From assembly GCA_032986305.1 (NCBI GenBank), contig GCA_032986305.1_3672.1: DNA of 64,000 nt; one strand, given 5' to 3'. This DNA is from a phage. The notes beneath the pieces are model-generated. The model saw nothing but the letters and a program-made list of their open reading frames with translations, ran no database searches and was not told the origin of the DNA. Numbering within the stretch: the first letter of the stretch is position 1; every line of letters begins with the position of its first letter. The position numbers and the translations under genes were made by a program. Below are positions 41,896 to 62,838 of the stretch, one piece after another.

Positions 41896-42243
41896 TTATT
41901 TGTTTCTCATCCAGCTTTCCCAAGCTGCCTGATAATCTGCCTCACTGCGGCGGATCTCTTCTTGCTCTTCAAGCCGGATCTCTTCTTCCAGGTACCCCAG
42001 GATATCAGCCTTTTTGGTCTGGCGTAACATCCAATCATCTTTTTTACGAGTAAAGATCTTGTACGCTTTCTCGCAAACCTCCTTTTTACTACCTTTTTGG
42101 ACTTCAATAACTTTGTAGGCCATGTACTGAACTAGTTTGAGCTGATCAAGGCGTTTCATGATGTTTTCCTCTTTATGGGGTTCTGGTTTGGTGGGCCTTT
42201 TGGCCCGTGTCATTATCTTATTACTTACGGCGGCAAAATTCAA
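41896..42243 (-). CDS. hypothetical protein
   Basis: 115 aa, basic/charged. Confidence 0.45.
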   Translation of the reverse strand: MNFAAVSNKIMTRAKRPTKPEPHKEENIMKRLDQLKLVQYMAYKVIEVQKGSKKEVCEKAYKIFTRKKDDWMLRQTKKADILGYLEEEIRLEEQEEIRRSEADYQAAWESWMRNK

Positions 42244-42493
42244 GTGTTTTTAATTGATAATCTTCTTCAGCCTGAAGTACAACCGCTTCAATCATTTCGT
42301 TGGCATTGTTGAAGCCATACCCTTGAGCGAACTCATCCGCGCCACCTTTGTGATCATGTTCTGCGTTCATCGCTTCCACAAAATGGAATTCAAGATTATT
42401 GAGGTAAGGGCTTGATGTTCCGTCCTCTTTTTCGATGAGATCCCAGATAGCATTAAAACGTGATTCAACTTTTTGATTAATCCAGCTTGACAT
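42221..42493 (-). CDS. hypothetical protein
   Basis: 90 aa; own promoter and RBS AGAGGAAA. Confidence 0.45.
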   Translation of the reverse strand: MSSWINQKVESRFNAIWDLIEKEDGTSSPYLNNLEFHFVEAMNAEHDHKGGADEFAQGYGFNNANEMIEAVVLQAEEDYQLKTLEFCRRK

Positions 42494-42547
42494 AATGTTT
42501 TCCTCTCTTCTGGTTGTTGTGTGGGCACTTTTGCCCCTTCAAGATAA

Positions 42548-42576
42548 ATGTTACCTAACCACCTGGCAGATGTCAA
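42548..42576 (-). promoter_or_regulatory. sigma70-like promoter (minus strand)
   Basis: Minus-strand TTGACA - 17 nt - TAACAT, followed by GC hairpin then RBS. Confidence 0.45.
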
Positions 42577-42696
42577 CTGTTTTTATAGTTTTTATATAAC
42601 GGGCACCCCCGGTGATTGTCTCCCCCCCGTCGCCAGGTGCCACCCGTGAGATAAGTATAACAAAAAACAGGACCATTGCAAGCCCTGTTTATTATC

Positions 42697-42831
42697 TTAA
42701 AACCAGTTGCCAACCGTTTCCAATAGATCACTGACTATCAGGACAATACTGATCAGCACATACCTAACCATAAAGGGAAAGATCGCCAACATTGCCGCCA
42801 CGATCCCTATGGTGATAATTATCTTTCTCAT
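42697..42831 (-). CDS. small membrane peptide (44 aa)
   Basis: MRKIIITIGIVAAMLAIFPFMV...; co-oriented, below ORF-track cut-off. Confidence 0.3.
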   Translation of the reverse strand: MRKIIITIGIVAAMLAIFPFMVRYVLISIVLIVSDLLETVGNWF

Positions 42832-42921
42832 GTTTTTGTATTCTCTTTCTGTTGCGTTCAAGGCGGTCACCGCCGCCTGCTTATGCTTTGTTAGTTAATG
42901 GGGCGTACGGTATAGATTAAA

Positions 42922-43146
42922 CTATGCTGTACGCTCAACTATAACAACGGCTTGAGGGATCTCACCTTCCACCACTATCAAGGCTTTTTTCTGCGTGATA
43001 GATATCTTTACCCGCTTCAGCGTGGCGGTAAAATCTTTCATTTCGTCACGTGGTGTTTTAGTGCAATACCAGATCTCAGGCTTACCTATTTGCAAGCCGC
43101 GTAAAAATTCCGTTTTGCCTGTTTTGTTCGTGATCATTTGTTTCAC
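42922..43146 (-). CDS. hypothetical protein
   Basis: 74 aa ORF. Confidence 0.4.
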   Translation of the reverse strand: MKQMITNKTGKTEFLRGLQIGKPEIWYCTKTPRDEMKDFTATLKRVKISITQKKALIVVEGEIPQAVVIVERTA

Positions 43147-43324
43147 CTTACCCGATACCGTGGGGAGATAGGATCATGTTAGCCATAGTTGCAACCACTC
43201 CAACCGATAATGCCATGCCAACTACTACAACCGTGAAAATTTTTTCTAACATGATTCCACCCTCATTAATGGGCGTTGCCTTATTGCCCCGCCCTATGTC
43301 GTACACTTTTCTTCTGATCCTCTG

Positions 43325-43588
43325 TTAGCATACGATAGCGATCACGCCGCCACAAATAAAAGGTAAATCAAAACGGTCTACCTTGCAAGCTATTTTTAAA
43401 CGAAAGGCAACATAAAAGAAAAGTTGCAAACAATCGATCATTGTGTTAGCTGTTGAAACACTGCCAGCATTAAACACCACCCCGCCCACGGCGTTAAACG
43501 TTGCGTTACTCACGAAAGCGAAAAGGCAAGCGATCACGGTGGCGATCATGATGTTGCGTTTTGTCAATCTGTAAATGATGTTTTTCAT
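43325..43588 (-). CDS. small membrane protein
   Basis: 87 aa with hydrophobic segments. Confidence 0.4.
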   Translation of the reverse strand: MKNIIYRLTKRNIMIATVIACLFAFVSNATFNAVGGVVFNAGSVSTANTMIDCLQLFFYVAFRLKIACKVDRFDLPFICGGVIAIVC

Positions 43589-43658
43589 TCTGTCATGTTG
43601 GCGGCATCGCTGCCGCCTTATGTATTATGCTTTGTAAGATGGCTGTTGTCAAACTATT

Positions 43659-43838
43659 TTAACGATAATCATCGTACGCTTTATTAACCTGGCGGATATA
43701 ACATTCAAAAGCCAGATCAATGGATTTATATTCACGGGTATATTCACCATAGGAAACTACATACATTTCTATAGCTTCCTCATATGCGAGGAGAATAGAA
43801 TCCAAGCCTACGATCTCAGTCTTTGCAATAATAGCCAT
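43659..43838 (-). CDS. hypothetical protein (59 aa)
   Basis: MAIIAKTEIVGLD...; N-terminus resembles that of 44203..44487 product. Confidence 0.35.
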   Translation of the reverse strand: MAIIAKTEIVGLDSILLAYEEAIEMYVVSYGEYTREYKSIDLAFECYIRQVNKAYDDYR

Positions 43839-43913
43839 GATTTTTTATCCTCTTTGTGGTTGGTGGGGCTTGTTGCCCCCTTGATTTATATATTACAGTC
43901 TTATATGGTCATG

Positions 43914-44147
43914 TCAACTATTTTCAAAAAATTTTTCTGCTGTGATATTCTTCCCGGTAGGGTTCGCTACTTTCAAAATTTTATCATGCACTGGACGCCC
44001 AAAAGAATAAGCGCCGTACACAGTAAACCAATAATCGCCGTCAGGTTGTACTATTACTGCCGCATATGGTACGCCTTTTTCGTTTTTGCTGACAGAATAG
44101 ATCACGTTGCCATTAATAGCCTCGGCGCGTTTAATTTGTTCCATCAT
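43914..44147 (-). CDS. hypothetical protein
   Basis: 77 aa ORF. Confidence 0.4.
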   Translation of the reverse strand: MMEQIKRAEAINGNVIYSVSKNEKGVPYAAVIVQPDGDYWFTVYGAYSFGRPVHDKILKVANPTGKNITAEKFFENS

Positions 44148-44202
44148 GATGATTTGCCTCTCTTTATTTTCATAATTGGGGGCCTTTTCGGCCCCGCCAG
44201 GT

Positions 44203-44487
44203 TTATTTATTGATAGCGTGCAGCGGGAAAGGTACGCCAGGTTGATAGATAACTTTTACAACCTCATCAGGGCAAAAGAAGTTGCAGAACTCACCGCAAT
44301 AGGCCTCATCCTCTTTCAACTCTTCATCAACATACTCAAAAAAGTAGTCGATGCTTGGATAATCTTGCCCTGGGTTATAGTCAACCATTGTCAGGACTAG
44401 TTCAAGATCGTTGCGTAGGATATGCATACCCGCTTTTAAGTATTTTGCTTCCATTTCTACTACATCGCCAACGGTAACAATAGCCAT
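44203..44487 (-). CDS. hypothetical protein
   Basis: 94 aa acidic, MAIVTVGDVVEM... Confidence 0.4.
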   Translation of the reverse strand: MAIVTVGDVVEMEAKYLKAGMHILRNDLELVLTMVDYNPGQDYPSIDYFFEYVDEELKEDEAYCGEFCNFFCPDEVVKVIYQPGVPFPLHAINK

Positions 44488-44712
44488 GATTTTAACTCCT
44501 ATCTATCCGGTTAATGATTGGGGGCCGCCCCCCTGACACGTCCTATTATCCATATTGTAGGGCTTGATGCAAGTACTTCTTTAAAAATTTTTTAAGCGCC
44601 TTGGGGGCCGCTGTAGCGCCAAAATAATAAAGGCCATGCAACCGCATAGCCTTTATGTGATTATATCGCTGCAGGCCCTGCCATGGGCCTTATTTTGCAT
44701 CATTTGCTGGAA

Positions 44713-45012
44713 TTATTCAGAGAAAACATCGTTCACAATAGCGATCACAATGCCGCCCACCTTGTCACGGTCAACAATGCACAAATCACCATAGATCATG
44801 TGGTAGTCTGGATGATCTTTCACGGAATAGTCAATGAGTGTTTTCTTATCGTCCAGCTTCGTAACTTCCATTCTCATAACGATATGAGAATCATCAAAGG
44901 CATTATTGCGAAAAGTCATAGCCTGACCGCCAGGGCACCCGGTGATCTCCACTTCCACACCGTCTACGATCTGACCATCAAAGAAATAAAGATTATTGGC
45001 GGGTATAAACAT
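44713..45012 (-). CDS. hypothetical protein
   Basis: Start set to downstream ATG because upstream codons AAAGGAG read as the RBS. Confidence 0.4.
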   Translation of the reverse strand: MFIPANNLYFFDGQIVDGVEVEITGCPGGQAMTFRNNAFDDSHIVMRMEVTKLDDKKTLIDYSVKDHPDYHMIYGDLCIVDRDKVGGIVIAIVNDVFSE

Positions 45013-45060
45013 GATCATTACTCCTTTTTGCACTGATTATTTTAACAGGGTTTAAATTTA

Positions 45061-45101
45061 CTTTATTGATGGCCTTGGAGTCAAGGCCATCTAAAAATAA
45101 A
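45061..45101 (-). promoter_or_regulatory. 45-bp repeated promoter/operator element, copy 1
   Basis: Minus strand: AT-rich, GATGGCCTTGACTCCAAGGCCATC palindrome containing TTGACT, then TAAACT; near-identical copies at 48780 and 49371. Confidence 0.5.
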
Positions 45102-45103
45102 TT

Positions 45104-45304
45104 TTACAGGCCTACAATCTCTTTGATTCGTTTTACTGCTGCCTCAGCGCCTTGAGGGTAGAAATTATGATAACCAATCACGCGGGTAATACTGATCGCC
45201 GCTTGGTGGTCCTCGTAGTCGCCTTTGAATATTTCTTGACCATCAACCAGCACAGCAATTTTTTCTTCTTTTTTGAAGTTAATAACGCGGATATTGTTGC
45301 TCAT
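45104..45304 (-). CDS. hypothetical protein
   Basis: 66 aa ORF. Confidence 0.4.
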   Translation of the reverse strand: MSNNIRVINFKKEEKIAVLVDGQEIFKGDYEDHQAAISITRVIGYHNFYPQGAEAAVKRIKEIVGL

Positions 45305-45361
45305 TTTGTTTCTCCTTTGGAACTTTGTCTGTGTGGTGGGGAGTGTCTCCCCGTTGATTGT

Positions 45362-45390
45362 TATTATCCATATTCAGGACCGGATTGCAA
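45362..45390 (-). promoter_or_regulatory. sigma70-like promoter (minus strand)
   Basis: TTGCAA - 17 nt - ATAATA, then hairpin GGGGAGACACTCCCC and RBS. Confidence 0.4.
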
Positions 45391-45589
45391 CACCCCGGAA
45401 GAAAAATTTTTTTGAAAAAAGTTAGGCCCCCAGGGATCGGGGGCCGTTATCAGGTGCGTACAGCGATAAAATACATCCCTACGCCTAACAATATTTCAAG
45501 GGCGATAATCTCCAGCCATACCATAACACGGCGCGCCTTATCGGTGCGGGGCTTATCCTTGGGTGTCATCGTCTCCCCCTTTCCTCCTG

Positions 45590-45811
45590 TTAGTAGTGAC
45601 GTGGTTTACAATGGTCCCCAGGAGTACTATCGCCACGCACATTACGAGAAAAATTATTTCTTCCGTTGTTCGGTCCATTGTTATAAAACCTCTCAAGATC
45701 AGGTCTAAAAGTAAATCTTTCGTTATTGAATCCGTCACGCCAGGCGGCTGGCTTCAAATCTTCACTAAATGGATTAATTAACGTGGCATTATTTAAACGG
45801 TTGGCCCACAT
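45590..45811 (-). CDS. hypothetical Asn-rich protein
   Basis: ATG after RBS GAGGA; 73 aa. Confidence 0.3.
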   Translation of the reverse strand: MWANRLNNATLINPFSEDLKPAAWRDGFNNERFTFRPDLERFYNNGPNNGRNNFSRNVRGDSTPGDHCKPRHY

Positions 45812-46160
45812 ATTTTCTATTCCTCTCAAATAGGCGATCCGCCTCAGTTAAACATATCTCATGGGCGTGATCTCTGGTTTTAGCTTCATCGAAAACCTGT
45901 TGTGCAAGGCTGCAACGTAGGGAGACTGGAAGATCACTATAATAGGCGTTGACAAACGTTTGAGCGTCGTACAGGTCTGAAAATACTTTACCCTTTCTAT
46001 TATTTCCCTTGTCAACAATTGCAAGGATAACCAATACAATAGTTGCAACCACCCCCAGGAAAATAGATATAATAAACCATAAAAAGGCGGATCTCCCCAT
46101 CTTGCCAGCGATCCAGGCGTTAAACAAGGCAACCAATATAGCCAAAATAATAAATTCCAT
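45789..46160 (-). CDS. membrane protein (two TM helices)
   Basis: MEFIILAILVALFNAWIAG...FLWFIISIFLGVVATIVLVILAIV. Confidence 0.45.
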   Translation of the reverse strand: MEFIILAILVALFNAWIAGKMGRSAFLWFIISIFLGVVATIVLVILAIVDKGNNRKGKVFSDLYDAQTFVNAYYSDLPVSLRCSLAQQVFDEAKTRDHAHEICLTEADRLFERNRKYVGQPFK

Positions 46161-46224
46161 TCTATGTACCTCTTTTACAGTTCTGATTAACAATAAGGCG
46201 GCAAATATGCCGCCTGTTACCTGA

Positions 46225-46605
46225 TTAAAAATTATCGCCGTAAATCTTTCCGCTTTCTACCCATACCACCACGCGAGGCATACTATCCCACACGTCTTGT
46301 TTTAGATTGAGCGCGTGCAATTCTTCGGTGGTGCTCATACCGGGCACGGGCTGATTGTATACTGCAAAACGACCGCCTGCATAATCATAGGCCAGGGTTA
46401 AATCACACTGGATCATCTTTTTGATCATGGCATTAAGCATGGCGTTAGCCGCATATTGATCACGTTTTAAAGGCAACTCTTTGATTAGTTTGCGATAGTT
46501 TTCGATATGGTCGCACACTGTTTCACGAGGAAGATCTTTCATATCCTCGCGAAAGGTAACCAGGTTAAACATAACGGTGTCAATGGCCTTGGTAGTGTTT
46601 TTCAT
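46225..46605 (-). CDS. hypothetical protein
   Basis: Start at ATG after RBS AGAGGA. Confidence 0.4.
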   Translation of the reverse strand: MKNTTKAIDTVMFNLVTFREDMKDLPRETVCDHIENYRKLIKELPLKRDQYAANAMLNAMIKKMIQCDLTLAYDYAGGRFAVYNQPVPGMSTTEELHALNLKQDVWDSMPRVVVWVESGKIYGDNF

Positions 46606-46694
46606 AATGTTATCCTCTCTGTTTTGTGTTGGGCAAGTCATCTCGCCCCTTGAGTTTTAATATAGCAGGTTTTTAGATTATTGCAACACTTTAT

Positions 46695-47318
46695 TTATGA
46701 AAAACTCATCTCCCCATATTCATCCACATCAAACCGCCAATCATTGGCTTCAATAAGGCCGATCAGGTTTTCGGTAGTAAACTGTTCAAGATAGGCCCCC
46801 TCCAGGTCTACGTAAACCTTGCGGGATAGCTCCCGTACCGTCTCGGTGATCAGCTCTTCCAGCTCTTCAACTTTATCCTCTTGCTTGGTGGTCAGGTCTA
46901 GCCAATTAGTATCGATGCACCCTCCTATTGTGTTTTCGTGGTGATAATGGCTAAACGGGATACGTTCAACACTAGCTGATAACTCGCCATCGTGCATTGT
47001 GCCGAACAAGTGACGAATTGATCGGAACTTGGTCAGGGCCTTGACTTTACGCAAGAATTTTTCTAAATCCACGTTTTCAGCACTGATTGACGCGCCATCG
47101 CCTTGACACCAAAAGCCGGACCAACGTACTTCGGTATCTTCAAGGCCGTACTCTGGAAAGACATATTCTTTATAGTGTTCAATTACGCTTTCTGCAAAAA
47201 AATTATCCCCGCTGTGTTCTTCTCTTTCGCGTACCATTTCAATGGCTTTTTCTTTTTGTTCGTCGGTCAGCACATCGAAAGATAAATTGTAACCTGTGGT
47301 AATGTTAACGGTGGTCAT
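46695..47318 (-). CDS. hypothetical acidic protein
   Basis: 207 aa, strongly acidic; consensus promoter upstream. Confidence 0.5.
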   Translation of the reverse strand: MTTVNITTGYNLSFDVLTDEQKEKAIEMVREREEHSGDNFFAESVIEHYKEYVFPEYGLEDTEVRWSGFWCQGDGASISAENVDLEKFLRKVKALTKFRSIRHLFGTMHDGELSASVERIPFSHYHHENTIGGCIDTNWLDLTTKQEDKVEELEELITETVRELSRKVYVDLEGAYLEQFTTENLIGLIEANDWRFDVDEYGEMSFS

Positions 47319-47346
47319 GATATTTTCTCCTGTTTTCTTTGTTAGT

Positions 47347-47365
47347 GGCGGGAAGTTTTCCCGCC
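47347..47365 (-). promoter_or_regulatory. 5' UTR stem-loop
   Basis: GGCGGGAA-gtt-TTCCCGCC between promoter and RBS of 46695..47318. Confidence 0.45.
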
Positions 47366-47375
47366 TGTGTGTTTA

Positions 47376-47403
47376 ATTATACTTATTGAGATTTACTTGT
47401 CAA
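47376..47403 (-). promoter_or_regulatory. sigma70 consensus promoter (minus strand)
   Basis: TTGACA - 16 nt - TATAAT; -35 abuts stop of upstream gene. Confidence 0.6.
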
Positions 47404-47653
47404 CACTATTTTTTAAATTATTGTGGCGCAAAATGTTTAAAATCTCTTCAACGTCATCAACACGGCGGCAATTTTTAAACGCTACCAATTGCCCCATGAT
47501 TTTAATCACTGGGCGGCCTTGCCAGTGCCCTTGGAGAAAGCGCGCCTTGACTTTATCGGTGGAACTATCACGCCACCAAATAGCCTTGTTGTTGCAGTAG
47601 TAAAAATTATTCAGGATAACATCAACTTTATCAAAATTTTTTAATTTACGCAT
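47393..47653 (-). CDS. hypothetical protein
   Basis: 86 aa ORF. Confidence 0.4.
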   Translation of the reverse strand: MRKLKNFDKVDVILNNFYYCNNKAIWWRDSSTDKVKARFLQGHWQGRPVIKIMGQLVAFKNCRRVDDVEEILNILRHNNLKNSVDK

Positions 47654-47871
47654 GGCGTTTACTCCTTCCTCTCTTTGATGTGGTTAGTATAGCTAACCTG
47701 TTGACGATGTCAATGATATTTTTAACGCCATAAAACGGCCCTGGGCGATGTTTTCAGGTTAAAGGGGGCGATTGCATAGGTGGGGGCCTTTTTGGCGCTT
47801 ACAGGGCCAACCAGGGGCGCTATTCGTATGATAGAAATAAAAAGCCCCGCACAATGGCGGGGCGTTGGTTG

Positions 47872-48069
47872 TTATTTGTCTTTATGGCGGTATCGTTCTG
47901 CCTGTCGTTCACGTTCCAAAAGTAGGCCGGGCAATTTACGATCATAATGATTACGCCAGATCTTCCCAAACCTTTTTGGCTTATTCAGTTTATTGTTACG
48001 CTGGCGGCGTTCTGGCAGCTCTTCGGAATCATGAGGGCGCTTTACAATTTTCTCGAAATTAATTTTCAT
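47872..48069 (-). CDS. hypothetical basic protein
   Basis: 65 aa, Arg/Lys-rich. Confidence 0.35.
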   Translation of the reverse strand: MKINFEKIVKRPHDSEELPERRQRNNKLNKPKRFGKIWRNHYDRKLPGLLLERERQAERYRHKDK

Positions 48070-48413
48070 ATATTCCCCCCCTTGCTAACTTCAATATTGG
48101 CCTGAATAGCTCGGATACGGCGCTTTATAACTTCCTGATCTGTGTGGTCGTATCCCCAAAAGTCTACAATTTTTGCGCCCCCCGCCTCCAGGCGGTATAG
48201 TGTTTCCTGCATTTTGTAAGCCGGGATCGGGCGCGGTGTTACTTGGTCACCTTCTTTATTTTTATACTTTATAATATAATCTTCGTTATCGTTGAATGCC
48301 CAAAATGGATATTCTGCAAGGGCGGTACTTCCTCTTTCCTTTTTATCCTGGATCTTATTTACAATTAAAGCCGTAGCAATAGCGCCAATAATAAAACTAG
48401 CCCCGCTAATCAT
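48066..48413 (-). CDS. hypothetical protein with N-terminal TM helix
   Basis: MISGASFIIGAIATALIV... Confidence 0.4.
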   Translation of the reverse strand: MISGASFIIGAIATALIVNKIQDKKERGSTALAEYPFWAFNDNEDYIIKYKNKEGDQVTPRPIPAYKMQETLYRLEAGGAKIVDFWGYDHTDQEVIKRRIRAIQANIEVSKGGNI

Positions 48414-48489
48414 GTGTACTTTCTCCTTTCATGGTGTTAATAAATTATCTTTATAGATGGCCCTGCAACCAGGACCACCGAAAAAATAA

Positions 48490-48735
48490 CTATTTCACAA
48501 TGCCTACAAAACAGATCCCGCCTTCACCTATGTAAGCAATATCGGTAACTTTATAATTTGTCAAGATCTGTTTATTTAGTTCATTAATAAAATCGGTCAT
48601 TGCGTTGGTGTAGTTGTCTTCCATATCTAAGGCATAATCCCAGGCGTAAACCTTTTTACGTCCGAAGCCTTTTACCATGATACGGGCGCTTTTGGTGTTG
48701 GTGGGCGCATAATATTTTGTGATTAGTGCTGCCAT
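48490..48735 (-). CDS. hypothetical protein
   Basis: 81 aa; RBS GAGGAG; preceded by 45-bp element copy 2. Confidence 0.4.
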   Translation of the reverse strand: MAALITKYYAPTNTKSARIMVKGFGRKKVYAWDYALDMEDNYTNAMTDFINELNKQILTNYKVTDIAYIGEGGICFVGIVK

Positions 48736-48779
48736 GGTTTTAACTCCTCATTAGTTCAGTGTTAACAGTGTAAAGTTTA

Positions 48780-48820
48780 CTTTATTGATGGCCCTGGAGT
48801 CAAGGCCATCTAAAAATAAA
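48780..48820 (-). promoter_or_regulatory. 45-bp repeated promoter/operator element, copy 2
   Basis: Near-identical to 45061..45101. Confidence 0.5.
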
Positions 48821-48822
48821 TT

Positions 48823-49134
48823 TTACTCGTTTTCTTCCAGCTCTGTCTGCAATTCCTGGTATTCTTCATCGTCCTCAATATCCAGGCTGTCGATGTAGTC
48901 GCTAAATCCGCAGCGGTAAGCGATAGGATCTAACTCCTTGAGGATACGCGACGGAAGAAAAGAAATGTTTCCGATCATAATTTCGCCGTAGATCTCGTCT
49001 AGCCATTCGTCATAGTTTTCGTCGTACTTGTCCTCGTCGATTTCAAAGTTATCGATCTTGTTCTCAAGGTCTGCGATCTGTTTTTTCAGCGCGGCGATCT
49101 GCATAGCTTTTTCTGCGGCGGTCATAGTAGTCAT
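48823..49134 (-). CDS. hypothetical acidic protein
   Basis: 103 aa, coiled-coil-like N-terminus. Confidence 0.4.
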   Translation of the reverse strand: MTTMTAAEKAMQIAALKKQIADLENKIDNFEIDEDKYDENYDEWLDEIYGEIMIGNISFLPSRILKELDPIAYRCGFSDYIDSLDIEDDEEYQELQTELEENE

Positions 49135-49370
49135 GGTGTTTTCTCCTTTTGTGTGTTCTGGGAAGTTTTCCCGTTTACGTGTTTAAGTATACCGATTTGG
49201 GTTAGCTTGTCAATTAAAAATTTAAGAAAAATTTTGCAAAACTGTTGGCGCTACTCATTAACATTTGCGCCAGGATGTAACCGACAACGCAAACGATAAT
49301 AGTTACCTTTGTGTATTGGCGTGTAGTGCTCATCTTAAAGCCCCCTTTTCGCTTAGTTGAGACTAGTTTA

Positions 49371-49411
49371 CTTTATTGATGGCCCTGGAGTCAAGGCCAT
49401 CTAAAAATAAA
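49371..49411 (-). promoter_or_regulatory. 45-bp repeated promoter/operator element, copy 3
   Basis: Near-identical to 45061..45101; upstream of a 39-aa membrane ORF. Confidence 0.5.
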
Positions 49412-49412
49412 C

Positions 49413-49817
49413 TTAATAAGTTTTCAGTACTTTACCGTCCAACCTGTCAAGCTGGATCTCAATAGCTGCAGAAAACCTATTGTACACCACGTCGCCCATA
49501 GAATCCAACCAATCTATGACGTTATATACCTGCTCTTTATTCTTACAGGTCCGGATCCGTTTCATGATGTAAGCCGGATCAATATTGGTACTCTCGTTGG
49601 TGTTCCCCTGTACCTGGTTTGCCGTATTAGTTACATCTTTAATGGCCTTTACCACCACCTGGAATGGCTTTAAGGTGCCTTTTGCGTTCATCTCACGCGC
49701 TTTTGCGGCGCGGTTGTTATATGTTACACAACGGCGGCAAATATTGATCAAATGCATGTCAATAATTTTTTCATCGTTTGCCAACTCGTTCATGATGCGG
49801 CGTACGTTCTTATTCAT
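49413..49817 (-). CDS. hypothetical protein
   Basis: 134 aa ORF. Confidence 0.4.
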   Translation of the reverse strand: MNKNVRRIMNELANDEKIIDMHLINICRRCVTYNNRAAKAREMNAKGTLKPFQVVVKAIKDVTNTANQVQGNTNESTNIDPAYIMKRIRTCKNKEQVYNVIDWLDSMGDVVYNRFSAAIEIQLDRLDGKVLKTY

Positions 49818-49899
49818 GGTCTTTTTCCTTTATGTTGGCGGGAAACATTCCCGCCTTTTGTGCCCAGTTTACTTGAATTTTGCAGCGTGTCAACAATTT

Positions 49900-50298
49900 T
49901 TATTCATGGGCGCATGTTACAATGTGCTTTTTATAGCCCAGGCGGTCAGCAAGTGCCGACAAAAACTCTTCTTCGTAGATCCAGCCGTCGGCAGTGATCC
50001 CCATAGTATTTAATGCGCTCTCAAGTGCTGCGTTGGCCTTATCATAACCGTGACCGCTCGCCTTGCCGCCAGTATAGCCGTACTTATTGTTCTTGTTGTC
50101 GTGTATCCAAAAAACGCAGTAGTAAGTGTTCCCGCTGGCGGCGGCATAGTACCGGATCTCCGCTACTTCGTGCAAATTATTATCATCGTCCAGGCCAACC
50201 AGATTATAAGCCTTGTAAAATCCACGATCACGGCGGCAATTTTTAACATCAGAAAAAGAGAAGTCGGCATTGTCAAAATTAAAGGTTGTGGTTTTCAT
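49900..50298 (-). CDS. hypothetical protein
   Basis: 132 aa ORF. Confidence 0.4.
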   Translation of the reverse strand: MKTTTFNFDNADFSFSDVKNCRRDRGFYKAYNLVGLDDDNNLHEVAEIRYYAAASGNTYYCVFWIHDNKNNKYGYTGGKASGHGYDKANAALESALNTMGITADGWIYEEEFLSALADRLGYKKHIVTCAHE

Positions 50299-50362
50299 GA
50301 TTTTATCCTCTCAGTGTCTTTTTTGATTTCAGTATATTTTGTGTCAGGCCATATGTCAATAC

Positions 50363-50560
50363 TTATTTTTTATTAAACCAGTGGTTGATCTGGCCTTTTG
50401 TCAGGGCGCAACGATTAAGTTGGTGCCGTGTATAGCTCTGACCGCGACGGAATTTATAAAGGCCTTGCCCGTTGTTGATGGTTACATCCACCCGGCAAAC
50501 CATTTGATCGGTGACCACCTGGCGAGTGTTGCGACGTACTTTGATTCCGTAGGCGTTCAT
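50363..50560 (-). CDS. hypothetical protein
   Basis: 65 aa ORF. Confidence 0.35.
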   Translation of the reverse strand: MNAYGIKVRRNTRQVVTDQMVCRVDVTINNGQGLYKFRRGQSYTRHQLNRCALTKGQINHWFNKK

Positions 50561-50645
50561 GATTTTTTATCCTCTCTGTTAATTGGTGTGGTGTTGTTCA
50601 CCTTGCGAGGATAAGAATAACAATAACTGTACGAGCTGTCAACCA

Positions 50646-50822
50646 TCAGTTAAAATTATTTTTTGGGTAGAATTCTCCAGCCGCCGCCCCTGCCAGGTTA
50701 ACCATCATTTTTTCGTACTCTTCTTTATGTTCCAACGCTCCCGCCATAGCCTTTTCAACCAGGGCGATAGCCTCAGCGTCATTAATAGCTACATTTTCCA
50801 GGGGGATCATGTTACCTTTCAT
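50646..50822 (-). CDS. hypothetical protein (58 aa)
   Basis: RBS GGAGGT then ATG; MKGNMIPLENVAIND... Confidence 0.35.
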   Translation of the reverse strand: MKGNMIPLENVAINDAEAIALVEKAMAGALEHKEEYEKMMVNLAGAAAGEFYPKNNFN

Positions 50823-50869
50823 TTTTGTACCTCCTCTTCAATTGTTACCTATCCTATAGCATAGGCCCA

Positions 50870-51838
50870 CCAGGTTTGCAAGCCTTCATTCTCTCCTACC
50901 TGGTCAGTTAGGTCCTACCAGGCTGGCCCCGCCAGGTTGCAGCGGTTAGCGCATCAGGTTAGAAAATTTTTTTGAAAAGTGTTGACAGCGGCCCAGCCAG
51001 GTGGCACAATATACCTATCGAAAGGACGGCAGGCACCGGTGACGGGGGAGACAACCACCGGGGATGGGCGCTGCATAAAATGAGAACGGTTATCATTATC
51101 CTTTAAAAATTTATGCAAAAATCCTTGCTTTCTTTGTCCTGTGTGATACTATAATAACAAGCCGGGGCAACAGGGGCCGGGAGACAATCACCGGGCCTGC
51201 CCGTTATTCTGCAAACGAGAATGATTATCATTCAAAATTCTAAATGAGAACTCCTCGCATTTAATAAATTTAATTAGCATGCTAATTACCCTCCGTAACA
51301 ATTTCCTATAAAACAGTATCCCATAAAATATTCCCATACAGAAATTTTAAAAATCCATTTCTGAAAACGAAAAATCGATTTCGTCCCCAAAAATTTCAGG
51401 TCGAGATCCGGAACGATTTCTAGAAAATCCGATTTAGAAAACGAAAAACAGATCGAGTACTGAGAAATTTATCGAGAAAAATTTTCAGAAAATTCAATCT
51501 TTGAAACGAAAAACAGATCGAGTACCTGGAAAGCTGCACTGCAACTTCAAGATAGTGGTTAGATTATTACCATAGAAGGTCAAGGGTAAGTGGAGGAAGT
51601 TCTAGTAGAAGGATGTGAGCATGTGTGGGAAATCTGTAATGGTGGCCTGAAATATGGTGCAAACGATAGGATGAGTGATTCAGCTTGTCGCGCCTACTCT
51701 GAAAAAATCCATTTTAGTTTTCGATCCATTTTCTGATTTTCTAAGGATTTTAAAATATCCGGCCCGGTGAAATATCAAAAGGAGGAAATCCATTTTAGAA
51801 ATCCCCCTTATACTTGATATGCCAGGAATTTTCAAGTA
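50870..51838. other. non-coding repeat-rich region
   Basis: No ORF of 60 aa or more; two paralogous promoter-hairpin units at about 50980-51240; direct repeats AAATCCATTT (x5) and GAAAACGAAAAACAGATCGAGTAC (x2). Confidence 0.5.
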
Positions 51839-60138: not shown

Positions 60139-60414
60139 CAATAGTTCAGGTAGGTCGTTAAGCTACCCCGCACCATTACGTGCATAGCCATACGTTTTCA
60201 CGTAGGATCGGACCATCTCATATTCCTATGATAAGCAACCACAGGAATCCTCCCATTTCGACCGCACTTGCTGGTCTACTTCCTTTCGGAATGGCCTCTG
60301 AGCGTTCGCTCTTTTGAGCGCTTCGTTGCGGATTACCTTGCCATAAGGTTTAGGCTTCCCGCAGTTAAAGAGGTTATTCGACATAGATTACTCTATGAAG
60401 CCACAATGTTATTT
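60139..60414 (-). mobile_element. group I-type intron in DNA polymerase gene (ORF-less, about 276 nt)
   Basis: Separates ...IIYYH from DEYQLQV at motif C; exon 1 ends in U, intron ends in G. Confidence 0.5.
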
Positions 60415-62838
60415 ATGGTAATAAATAATACGACGAACACCTTCATCGTACCACCCACGCTTCACCATTTGGTGGTGCATGAGTATCCCAACTAAGTCAC
60501 ACAGCGATGCACCACCATTCTGTTGGTATGCATTAAGTAAAGAGTGTTTAGATCGGGTCCAGATGGCATGACCATCAAAAGAGTAGATAAACTTCTTACC
60601 CGTTGCTTCCCAGAATTTCTCCAGATCCTCTTTACGCCCCTTAAGACCAGGGTTGGCATCCCAAAGTGCATCGATTACCCTTTGTCCCAACTCTGGAGAG
60701 ATGTCCAGCATATCTGCAACTTTATCTTTTTGTGCCCCGTACATAACCCCATACGTGATAGGTTTACCGTCGTTACGGGACACCTCTCTGCCTGCTACTT
60801 TTGTATATGCCTCAGCATTGTTTTGGTGTGCGTCTCCGTTACTTACAACATCGTAATACAGGCCGTTGTCGAACTCAAAGGCACCCCAAGCCCCGATAAG
60901 CTGCTCTAAGTTGGACCCGTCGATACCGATCTCAAAGTATCCTGGAGGAACACCCCACAAGCTACGCATCTCTTTACCCATAACCACTTTAGGAGAGGGT
61001 TTAGGCATGTTTGCACAAATACTGTGTTTCTGTCTGGAAGTGTTTGTTAATCCAGAGCTTTTAGCAGGAAGCTTATGGTCAATCTTCAAGCGTGGGTGAT
61101 TAAGAAGACCAGTATCAACCTTATCCTCCTTGATCGGATCAAGGACCGATCTGCGGTTTCGCAATGATAACCACAAGACGATATCTTTAGCCATCTCTCC
61201 GTTCAATTTTTCAAGATTCGGACATAGGTGTCCAAACGTATCTTTCAGTTGCGGAGAAGTAATAAGTGCCCTAGCTTTTCTACGTATTTTCCTGAATACT
61301 TCCTTTTTAATCCTTTCGGAGTTAGGAAAGCTTCGGAACTTGTGCACAGTTGTCTGGAACTTAGCATCAGTTTTGTTCCAGAAGTTGATAATTAGGTCAC
61401 AATACTCTGACTCCAAAAGCTCGTCCATATATGCATATACTCGTGCATCAACATCTGCATCAGGTAAAGCTTTCTTCTTGCTGTCTTTAGTTACATCCTT
61501 AGTTCTCCACATTGTCGGAAGCCAGCCAGCACTGATCAGGTATCGCTTAATGTCGTCCTGGTTGCTGATTTTCATAGGTATCTTGCAGTCCGGCATTCGC
61601 TTCTGCTGTAGATCACTTATTGCCTGATCCATCAACTCTTTAGGTAAAGGGTGTGGTGTGGAAGTGCCCTTAATATAGCCTCTCAAGAAATCAGCCATCT
61701 TATCGGGGTCTTTGCATCCCATCTCTTCACACCATTTTATCCCCATCTTGCTGACATCTCCTGTAGAGGTAAATGCTCTCTTAGGCGGGGCTTTGAACTC
61801 TAAAGCGCTCATGTCTACAGGATATCCAAGCTTATCTTTTAACCATTTCCAACCATTATTAGAGATTGTCCCGTCTTGGTTAAACGGCTTTTCAGGGAAC
61901 TTGGGCCGCTGAGACATTGACAGCTCTTTTAAAGGCAGTTGTGGTTCAACACGATCAGCGATTTCTTTCATCCACGCATCGCAACGGTCACGTAAAGCAA
62001 TAGCTCCATCTATGTCGAAATATACGCCCTGACGGGCCTGCAGCTCCATCAGGAAGTGCTGCAGCATACCTCGGCGCAATGCGTTCTTCCAGGTGATCTT
62101 CTTGAACCCTTTTGGCTTCTCTTTGGCAGGATCGTACATAAAGTTCTGCATGTCAGATTTGCCGTAGAATACACCTTTTGATTCCGCTACCAGCTCTTTC
62201 CAGAGCAACTCCTGGATGATAACGTCCTCGAATACACGATCCACATACTTCCACAACGGAAGATCGCGCCAGTCATCAATTTGAACTTTCTGGTTACCAA
62301 GGGCGTAGCCCCATGCCATAAGGCCGTGAGGACCAACAGGCTGCATTTTCTTAGTAACCGGGTTGAATACAGCGTCCGGACAACCTTTTGGTAAAGGGCG
62401 ATCAGGCCACAAGATTCGGCTCATCGCCAACGTATCAAACAGGTTAACCTGGTGGTCGTTGATAGTCCCCATACATTTAGGATCACGGAACATATCAAAA
62501 TGAATACCGGATAATCTCTCCATCAGCATAAAGTCATAACTATAGCAGTTATGGCAGTTCAAAGCTGTTGGTGACCAGTCGGAATTGCCTGTAAGCCAAC
62601 CTTCCAACTCCGAAAAATCTGCTATGCGAACTTCAAAATCTTTATAAAGAGCTTTCTTTGCCAGAATAAAGTTCTTAGCCTTCTCTATATCCTCCTCGGA
62701 GTAGTGTGTGCGGTCATTTAGAGGGAGGAACAGCATAAAACGGTTCTTATTCAGCTCTTTAAACAGGCCGCAGTGATAATAAAGATCTGGGTCTTCCAAA
62801 AGCCCGGAGGCCTCAAAATCGAAGCTATACATGCTCAT
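60415..62838 (-). CDS. DNA polymerase (family A, T7 gp5-like), exon 1
   Basis: N-terminal exo FDFEASGLLEDPDLYYHCG like T7 VSDIEANALLESVTKFHCG; motif A GIDGSNLEQL; motif B RNDGKPITYGVMYG. Confidence 0.8.

Follow-up and report, generated by a model that had tools for sequence, protein, structure and literature searches.

What do short GC-rich stem-loops do when they stand between promoter and ribosome-binding site (RBS) in front of many small phage genes? The question is raised by a leftward-read block at 41,896-50,830 of a stretch of 64,000 nucleotides (nt) of phage DNA (GenBank assembly GCA_032986305.1, contig GCA_032986305.1_3672.1), referred to here as the window. A sequence-only reading had proposed that each small gene of the block possesses its own sigma70-like promoter, followed by a GC-rich hairpin and the RBS. 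It held the hairpins to be unlikely terminators that may stabilise the 5' end or act as processing or regulatory sites. This account is partly confirmed, being right in outline and over-generalised. What it missed is that the units are repeated, exchangeable cassettes resembling the early-promoter/stem-loop elements (PeSLs) of T4-type phages, and that they double as recombination junctions. The architecture is real, statistically supported and conserved. On sequence evidence, it represents a system of promoter/stem-loop cassettes of the PeSL type, and no earlier description of one was found for this group of phages. As for function, we put at about an even chance the combined reading that the stem-loop is an mRNA 5'-terminal hairpin slowing decay while the spacers serve as recombination linkers.

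The window belongs to Vequintavirus, the rV5-like coliphages, and its annotated relatives are classed as Vequintavirinae; Vequintavirus, rV5-like myoviruses. By megablast, 41896-50830 matched 247 phage records, with Escherichia phage HMD-6 at the top (94.7% identity). The GC skew reverses close to 40 kb, and all of the sequence between 41.9 and 64 kb reads leftward. The direct terminal repeat of phage Gotham begins only some 1 kb past the block, an arrangement that phi92 shares; transcription of the block therefore runs toward a genome end. All ten proteins tested from it fall into PHROG families of unknown function. The region at 41.9-50.8 kb is best explained as a plastic early-gene region assembled from small ORFan gene cassettes.

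For the census, 26 curated minus-strand genes from 50822 to 42159 were considered. About 17 of them have a sigma70-like site, so that a promoter of one's own is common here and 'each' was too strong. The full order of promoter, GC hairpin and RBS is seen for nine genes (49817, 49134 with a weak stem, 47318, 46605, 45304, 44487, 43838, 43588 and 42493), while about two thirds lack it. The individual elements that had been quoted were all recovered on the minus strand: the promoter TTGACA-16-TATAAT at 47403-47376, matching the consensus at 12 of 12 positions, and the hairpins GGCGGGAAAACTTCCCGCC (47365-47347), GGCGGGAATGTTTCCCGCC (49855-49837), GGGGCCGAAAAGGCCCC (44195-44179) and GGGGAGACACTCCCC (45352-45338). 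The pair GGGGCC..GGCCCC, offered as an example of promoter plus hairpin, belongs instead to a group of three hairpins with no promoter or only a weak one. The strong promoters at 50359, 47713 and 50642 have an absent or feeble hairpin, and roughly half of the promoter-bearing early units of the block have none. Four units carry a different 61-nt repeat, whose hairpin encloses the -35, and the genes outside all these groups abut or overlap their upstream neighbour. Promoters in 12 block units match the consensus at 9-12 of 12 positions, and the 20 nt 5' of the -35 average 80% AT against 57% block-wide. The promoters and true terminators of this block had already been predicted in the rV5 genome paper; the post-promoter hairpins go unmentioned there and were not called by its ARNold search. 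Our literature search likewise found no prior description of these hairpins in rV5-like phages.

A typical unit consists, in order, of an AT-rich tract, a near-consensus sigma70 promoter, an optional GC stem-loop of 13-19 nt, an A/C-rich unstructured leader, and a strong Shine-Dalgarno (SD) sequence with its ATG. A hairpin of -8 kcal/mol or below occurs in the 28 nt that begin 5 nt past the -10 in 8 of about 12 plausible block promoters, compared with 2.9% of all 28-nt windows in the 64-kb sequence. Of the nine stems, five start exactly 10 nt past the -10 and two start 11 nt past it; the other two have gaps of 6 nt and, in the weak unit of gene 49134, of 13 nt. When the window is pooled with phages phi92 and PD06, the start falls 9-11 nt past the -10 in 20 of 28 units with a modal gap of 10 nt, although these counts are not independent because the units are paralogous. 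The distance from -10 to ATG is 48-58 nt with a hairpin and 31-37 nt without one, as though some 20 nt of hairpin sequence could be inserted optionally. In the predicted folds of the 5' untranslated regions (UTRs), by minimum free energy and by centroid, some 4 free nt are followed by the hairpin and then by an open leader, the SD and the AUG, leaving the RBS unoccluded. Whole-UTR folds reach z scores of -4.1 to -5.4 in four cases and -1.8 to -2.3 in three, and are not significant in two. In the leaders, A accounts for 55% of the bases, C for 25%, G for 11% and T for 9%, which amounts to 80% A+C.

Are these hairpins terminators after all? They share with intrinsic terminators a GC-rich stem of 5-8 bp, a short loop and an intergenic site, but differ in lacking a U-tract and in lying downstream of a promoter rather than upstream. 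The 10-nt tails of the nine post-promoter hairpins are A/C-rich and hold 0-3 T, whereas those of six U-tailed hairpins of the block hold 5-8 (Mann-Whitney p = 0.0014). One of the latter, at 47844-47863 (-), is a canonical intrinsic terminator consisting of GCCCCGCCATTGTGCGGGGC followed by TTTTTATTTC. Other canonical U-tailed terminators stand on the same strand at 45445-45425, 44656-44627, 42690-42665, 46215-46196 and 41884-41867, and those at 44656, 45445, 46215 and 41884 correspond to t177, t181, t184 and t164 of the rV5 genome paper. In the spacers 5' of genes 45304, 44487 and 42493, a terminator and a post-promoter hairpin occur together. Thus, ordinary terminators would end transcription here, and the post-promoter hairpins form a separate class; at the level of sequence, the doubt cast earlier on termination holds good.

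The next question is whether evolution has kept these structures. The UTRs of 12 hairpin-bearing genes were aligned over ten other Vequintavirus loci with 84-96% identity (individual loci are given L numbers below), and a hairpin of -6 kcal/mol or below is kept in 95 of 112 orthologous UTRs, which comprise 47 distinct sequences. For gene 44487, five sequences have the stem GGGGG/CCCCC, two have GGAGG/CCTCC and one has a G.U intermediate, giving a compensatory path of GC (5), GU (1) and AU (2). A paired C/G insertion is found in the stem of gene 46605 in L012, the inner stem of gene 49817 is swapped for GGCGGTTGA-TAC-TCAGCCGCC in L003, and the hairpin site of gene 42831 reads CATAATACATAAGGCGG in L005. 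Furthermore, whole hairpins have been inverted, with the stem intact and the loop reverse-complemented, at gene 49817 in L015 (49837-49855), gene 46605 in L005 (46631-46648) and gene 42831 in L003 (42861-42878). The inverted loop is an exact reverse complement in L015 and L005 and a near-exact one in L003, and such inversions indicate template-switch or cruciform-type mutation at palindromes. Variable columns make up 58% of the loop and 25% of the stem (p = 4.5e-5). In a hand count over alignments and folds, G.U pairs on the sense strand outnumber A.C mismatches by about 7-8 to 2. An A.C mismatch on the sense strand would be a G.U pair on the other strand; the excess is suggestive only. Taken together, the comparisons support a picture in which the hairpins are maintained as structures while their loops vary freely.

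Which molecular role would suit such a structure? A 5'-end stabiliser appears to be the best single molecular reading, because the tails are not those of terminators, the placement is 5'-terminal by prediction, and the structure is maintained. In this proposal, E. coli RNA polymerase would start at a conserved C-A about 7-8 nt past the -10, so that the stem-loop, at +4/+5, would be a 5'-terminal hairpin with about 3-4 unpaired nt ahead of it. The hairpin would hinder RppH and the 5'-end-dependent action of RNase E, letting selected early mRNAs live longer, and the A/C-rich leader would keep the strong SD accessible. On read-through or processed transcripts, it may also mark a stable boundary. 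The repeated promoter, hairpin and leader would provide short homologies for the gain, loss and swapping of cassettes, as proposed for T4-type PeSLs. It is known that RNase E is much less active on base-paired 5' ends, that RppH needs unpaired 5' nucleotides, and that 5'-terminal stem-loops stabilise the ompA and papA mRNAs of E. coli (review PMC3997798 and references 92-95 therein). Those stabilisers (Emory, Bouvet and Belasco 1992; Bricker and Belasco 1999, as relayed in PMC3997798) have a short stable hairpin a few nt from the 5' end, as predicted for the present elements, and likewise an open translated region downstream. They differ in that the 5' ends here are predicted and the element recurs serially on many phage genes, instead of forming a single gene-specific leader. 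Overall, 5'-terminal protection from decay by RppH and RNase E is probably what the hairpins provide, and the earlier suggestion of 5'-end stabilisation fits the predicted starts and the kept structures. RNase III processing sites were rejected, since these 5-8-bp stems fall far short of the length of its substrates.

The T4 protein Srd stimulates RNase E. According to the rV5 genome paper, a homolog of Srd is present in that genome; that Srd-driven RNase E activity would make hairpin protection useful is speculative.

Several observations weigh against a stabilising role at the 5' end. The 3-4-nt overhang is itself a prediction, which would hold if transcription starts 7-8 nt past the -10, and it comes near the length still usable by RppH. 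Promoters elsewhere in the window, including those of the rightward modules, show no such hairpin, and the hairpins at 44195, 42206 and 42878 have an absent or poor promoter. The tighter spacing on the promoter side than on the RBS side is a non-significant trend (p = 0.11), and conservation does not differ between stem and flank. A formal covariation test on the most variable UTR returned one compensatory pair, matched by 49 of 500 shuffles and not significant, though the test is weak because the available relatives, at 85-96% identity, are too close. In Gotham (L002), a 4-nt deletion destroys the hairpin of gene 43838, which is therefore dispensable there. Similarly, Cronobacter phage CR9 (Certrevirus) has 17 promoter-per-gene units and a hairpin in only two of them. 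The literature search found no transcript mapping for rV5-like phages. Finally, one PeSL stem-loop behaved as a strong terminator in a lacZ assay (PMC2839356, PMC4122927), the PeSL211/210 stem-loop of RB49/phi1 having cut lacZ about as much as rrnB T1.

In line with this last result, the stem-loops may be transcription attenuators or insulators, which stop or damp read-through from the upstream cassette and leave each gene on its own promoter; PeSL stem-loops of T4-type phages have been assigned this function. The hairpins are indeed GC-rich and intergenic, those at 44195, 42206 and 42878 follow a stop codon with no clear promoter, and one public record annotates a 'terminator' over the cassette at 47340-47412. 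However, tails that are A/C-rich and free of U-tracts are not what such a role calls for, and canonical U-tailed terminators exist in the block, three of them in the very spacers that hold a post-promoter hairpin. A terminator placed past the next promoter would also hit that promoter's own transcripts, and the fixed offset from the -10 has no terminator rationale. Attenuation is thus considered unlikely, though it deserves some weight.

The elements extend beyond Vequintavirus. The same module is present in a second phage subfamily: in phi92 (Stephanstirmvirinae), 9 of 16 early units consist of TTGACA-16/17-TAnnnT, about 10 nt ending in ACATA, GGGCGGGAAAtggTTTCCCGCC or GGGCGGCAatagTGCCGCTC, and an A-rich leader, and these nine are near-identical. 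PD06 has the module in 8 of 17 early units, and the two hairpins of CR9 belong to the same family at a similar offset. It was observed that a stem family GGCGGGAA..TTCCCGCC, often placed after ACATA, is common to Vequintavirus, Justusliebigvirus and Certrevirus. The module is absent from the replication-gene block of phi92. A search for relatives of the 207-aa protein of gene 47318 gave two close loci only, along with six distant ones (24-31% identity) that yielded four promoter-plus-gene units in total. Two units at one distant locus (L018) have unrelated, AT-richer stems 5-7 nt past the -10 and not the GC module, and a Salmonella contig (L023) has one weak promoter-gene unit without a hairpin. 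The gene at 44147 in the window and gp247 of phi92 are 89% identical in amino acids and yet have unrelated upstream regions. A hairpin without a promoter precedes the former, whereas a TTGACA promoter with a GGCGGGAAGTGGTTTCCCGCC hairpin of the GGCGGGAA type precedes the latter; judged by these upstream regions, one conserved gene carries a swapped cassette.

The shared stem family would be expected if the palindromes bind a phage factor, either as a DNA operator at +5..+23 that shuts early promoters or as an RNA hairpin for a regulator, be it boxB/N-like antitermination or a translational or stability factor. Operators typically lie just past the -10, GAAAA-like loops occur, and the lambda nut boxB and HK022 put elements are likewise small hairpins that are transcribed shortly downstream of an early phage promoter. 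GAAAA is the loop of the 44195 hairpin, as in lambda boxB. The details speak otherwise. Within a single genome, this position holds at least six stem sequences that are unrelated to one another, and compensatory changes preserve pairing and not sequence. In place of the conserved loop of boxB and nut, the loops here are hypervariable and invertible, the most variable part of the element (58% of columns), with three of them reverse-complemented and either orientation tolerated. The stems are diverse and spread over many monocistronic units, and about half of the promoter-bearing early units of the block have no hairpin. No boxA-like partner was noticed near the hairpins, no formal search having been made. 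It is therefore quite improbable that a bound factor explains these hairpins.

Colinear BLAST chains against ten relatives gave 40 breakpoint ends, of which 28 are intergenic, while 23% of the sequence is intergenic (binomial p = 6e-10, with events partly shared by descent); most of the 'coding' ends are no more than 14 nt away from a start or stop codon. In L014, a 544-nt deletion of 49365-48820 removes two genes, with a 47-nt overlap between copies 1 and 2 of the 61-nt repeat. At the spacers, relatives carry whole-gene insertions of 219, 269, 277, 343-349 and 585-587 nt, and those of 269 and 277 nt are flanked by RBS-leader repeats of 18-28 nt. The 277-nt gene was inserted at the 42193-42206 site in four relatives via a 19-nt RBS-leader repeat. 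Other insertions adjoin a promoter (47708/47691) or the terminator hairpin at 42690, and nine relatives have another sequence in place of the variable gene 43588, with one recurrent junction within its promoter-hairpin cassette (43610-43644). These comparative data support the view that repeated spacers may act as homology for cassette exchange.

It could then be argued that the hairpins have no role in the transcript at all and are selfish or tolerated palindromes or recombination hot spots in DNA, kept by promoting cassette exchange. Breakpoints do cluster in the spacers, the whole-hairpin inversions point to hairpin or template-switch events at the DNA level, a swapped cassette stands at one conserved gene, and the PeSL papers propose this very role. 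Against it, many junctions lie in the RBS leader or promoter and not in the hairpin, and a DNA-only element would not be expected to keep so strict a distance to the -10, to be followed by an open leader or to show a sense-strand G.U bias. We regard an exclusively DNA-level role as a rather poor prospect. A bolder conjecture has two separate parts: that the ACATA-GGGCGGGRA..TYCCCGCC module is a mobile unit read by a dedicated phage factor, either an RNA-binding protein marking early transcripts or a recombinase moving cassettes, and that a promoter-driven GC-rich element with the core GGGAGACAAYCACCGG, present in three copies per genome and described below, is an undescribed phage small RNA or regulatory site. 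It is a long shot. If true, a dedicated factor would make the spacers an active gene-shuffling and expression-tagging system, not passive stabilisers.

The weakest proposal is that the hairpins terminate antisense, plus-strand transcription entering the block: a scan flagged several as followed by T-rich plus-strand sequence, for example GGCGGGAAACATTCCCGCC TTTTGTGCCC, but a real T-run follows in one only, the T-richness simply mirrors the A-rich discriminator and start region of the opposite strand, and 41.9-50.8 kb has no plus-strand genes or strong plus-strand promoters, so that this reading was rejected as highly unlikely.

To return to 5'-terminal hairpins in exchangeable cassettes, how close do they come to the PeSLs? 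These were defined in T4-type phages by Arbiol et al. 2010 (PMC2839356) and Comeau et al. 2014 (PMC4122927) as intergenic cassettes of hyperplastic regions that combine an AT-rich tract with a sigma70-like early promoter and a G/C stem-loop. Their hosts are the T4-type myoviruses RB49/phi1, T4/PST and KVP40/nt-1, and the position of the stem-loop sorts them into five subclasses, among them 'overlapping the -35' and 'downstream of the -10' (PMC2839356, PMC4122927). Recombination between PeSLs explains ORFan insertions and deletions and yields mini-circles (PMC2839356, PMC4122927). The likeness extends to ORFan-rich hyperplastic intergenic cassettes with AT tract, sigma70 promoter, G/C stem-loop and SD, to repetition within the genome, to subclasses at the -35 or past the -10, and to junctions of relatives that map there. 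Promoter, AT tract, stem-loop, ORFan plasticity, repeat family and indel junctions are all found in the block. Its stem-loops comprise nine stems 6-13 nt past the -10 and five that enclose the -35, its ORFan plasticity takes the form of whole-gene indels among ten relatives, and its repeat families in the window are a 61-nt one in four copies, a 66-nt one in two copies, and RBS-leader families. The differences are also clear. The lineage is Vequintavirinae/Stephanstirmvirinae and not T4-like, which places it outside the group for which PeSLs were defined. The dominant subclass has its stem at the predicted +4/+5, transcribed at the mRNA 5' end, whereas phi1 PeSL stems most often sit in the spacer that separates the -35 from the -10, or overlap the latter. 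Moreover, the stems here lack U-tracts and coexist with separate canonical terminators. No report of PeSLs in rV5-like phages was found in the literature searched.

If the combined reading is right, rV5-like and phi92-like phages, which are widely used in biocontrol and therapy, share a T4-type design for plastic early regions, and PeSL-type modular shuffling reaches beyond the T4 group. Each gene would be a self-contained cassette of promoter, optional 5' hairpin and strong RBS, exchangeable without disturbing its neighbours. A stem at +4/+5 with an A/C-rich leader can serve as a rule for annotation and engineering, such hairpins should not be annotated as terminators, and the cassettes are compact natural expression modules for E. 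coli. The current understanding of mechanism is unchanged, and the importance is moderate.

The nine cassettes are described here from right to left, with all coordinates on the minus strand. The cassette at 49837-49893 has TTGACA-16-TAAACT (49893-49866), a 10-nt gap and GGCGGGAATGTTTCCCGCC in front of gene 49817-49413; its UTR folds at -14.6 kcal/mol (z -4.07) and the hairpin is kept in 10 of 10 orthologs. At 49160-49213, TTGACA-16-TATACT (49213-49186) and the weak hairpin GGGAAAACTTCCC (49172-49160) precede gene 49134-48823. This cassette is a degenerate paralog of the one at 47403, with which it shares a 66-nt direct repeat (47338-47403) at 74% identity, and its UTR fold is not significant (z -1.05). 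The cassette at 47347-47403 joins the consensus promoter quoted above, which matches P185 of the rV5 genome paper, over a 10-nt gap to GGCGGGAAAACTTCCCGCC, ahead of gene 47318-46695. Its UTR has the most extreme fold (z -5.37), and the 73-nt cassette is present in 117 phage records, all of them rV5-like. Public annotation of such sites is inconsistent: OV101294.1 has a 'terminator' feature laid over the cassette equivalent to window 47340-47412, and OL631479.1 has a 'rho-independent terminator' placed within a coding sequence.

Further along, the cassette at 46631-46686 has TTGCAA-16-TATATT (46686-46659), a 10-nt gap and GGGCGAGATGACTTGCCC (46648-46631) before gene 46605-46225 (z -4.24), whose orthologs show at least five different stem sequences, all of which fold. 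At 45338-45390, TTGCAA-16-GATAAT (45390-45363) is followed after 10 nt by GGGGAGACACTCCCC and gene 45304-45104 (z -2.30), the gap being precisely 10 nt in 11 of 11 orthologs. Gene 44487-44203 is preceded at 44520-44572 by TTGCAT-16-GATAAT (44572-44545), an 11-nt gap and GGGGGGCGGCCCCC (44533-44520), with a UTR fold that is not significant against shuffles. The cassette of gene 43838-43659, at 43865-43917, has TTGACA-16-TAATAT (43917-43890), a 10-nt gap and GGGGCAACAAGCCCC (43879-43865; z -1.96). That of the variable gene 43588-43325, at 43600-43652, has TTGACA-17-CATAAT (43652-43624), a 6-nt gap and GGCGGCAGCGATGCCGCC (43617-43600; z -4.56). Finally, at 42523-42576, TTGACA-17-TAACAT (42576-42548), which matches P168 of the rV5 genome paper, is followed by an 11-nt gap, GGGCAAAAGTGCCC (42536-42523) and gene 42493-42221 (z -1.84).

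The three hairpins without a good promoter lie on the same strand. GGGGCCGAAAAGGCCCC (44179-44195) stands 8 nt past the stop of gene 44487 and 31 nt before gene 44147, with neither a recognisable promoter nor a U-tract. GGGCCAAAAGGCCC (42193-42206), 5' of gene 42159, has only the weak promoter TTGAAT-17-TAAGAT (8 of 12 positions). AGGCGGCGGTGACCGCCT (42861-42878), 5' of gene 42831, has a decayed promoter (-10 CATAAG) and is a paralog of the 43652 cassette. The converse case is the strong promoter TTGACA-17-TATACT at 50331-50359, which has a 32-nt leader and no hairpin; the promoters at 47713-47686 and 50642-50614 belong to the same contrast class.

The 61-nt repeat constitutes a second class of cassette, in which the hairpin takes the form GATGGCC-TTGACTCC-AGGGCCATC with the -35 inside. 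Copy 1 (49365-49425, minus strand as for the others) comprises an AT-rich tract and the hairpin GATGGCCTTGACTCCAGGGCCATC (49401-49378) enclosing the -35 TTGACT, then 18 nt and TAAACT, before gene 49333. Copy 2 (48774-48834) has its hairpin at 48810-48787 before gene 48735, the diverged copy 3 (48443-48503) has GGTGGTCCTGGTTGCAGGGCCATC at 48479-48456 before gene 48413, and copy 4 (45055-45115) has its hairpin at 45091-45068 before gene 45012. The fifth stem that encloses a -35 lies at 42690-42665 (-). It is a terminator-like hairpin, AAACAGGGC-TTGCAAT-GGTCCTGTTT with a T-run, and the -35 TTGCAA sits in its loop while the T-run continues into the -10 TATACT; because of this, terminator and promoter are fused there, as in the PeSL subclass overlapping the -35.

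Adjacent to this site is the first of three copies in the window of a GC-rich element, some 50 nt long and with the conserved core GGGAGACAAYCACCGG, at 42590-42665 (-), 51020-51085 (+) and 51150-51215 (+). It also occurs in L009 near 17136 (-) and in L008 near 12488 (+), being present in every Vequintavirus locus whose stretch covers the site and once each in the phi92 and PD06 stretches. Each copy lies directly 3' of its own sigma70-like promoter, and copy A has no open reading frame (ORF) after it. The copies fold individually to -20 to -24 kcal/mol; RNAalifold gave no common structure for the element, and Rfam, searched at the gathering threshold and at E<=1, no family for it or for the hairpins. 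The element may represent a small RNA or a site to which a protein binds.

Two of these copies fall within 50890-51800, some 900 nt without a convincing ORF that separate two leftward gene groups. Promoters on the plus strand (TTGACA-17-CACAAT at 50982) are also present in this region, as is a set of three direct repeats, each of some 62 nt, at 51332-51532; it could be an origin or regulatory region. A 'non-coding' box drawn on the map of the rV5 genome paper may correspond to it. Within the early genes, a coding motif AAAAATTGCCGCCGTG (peptide ..N/F-C-R-R..) recurs at 42226-42243, 47461-47478, 49730-49747 and 50229-50246 in four otherwise unlike small genes, close to the 3' end in 42493 and 47653 and in the first third of 49817 and 50298, which suggests a common short peptide module or a common recombination patch. 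Rfam family RF00028 (64.7 bits, E = 4e-14) identifies a group I intron at 60189-60424 (-), which begins 15 nt downstream of the end of a leftward 809-aa ORF (62838-60409); the homologous region of phi92 is annotated as a spliced nrdD. Lastly, 22 public records (MG0656xx) titled 'Campylobacter phage' match this block of an E. coli rV5-like phage at 92-96% identity; their host labels are probably wrong, or the preparations were contaminated.

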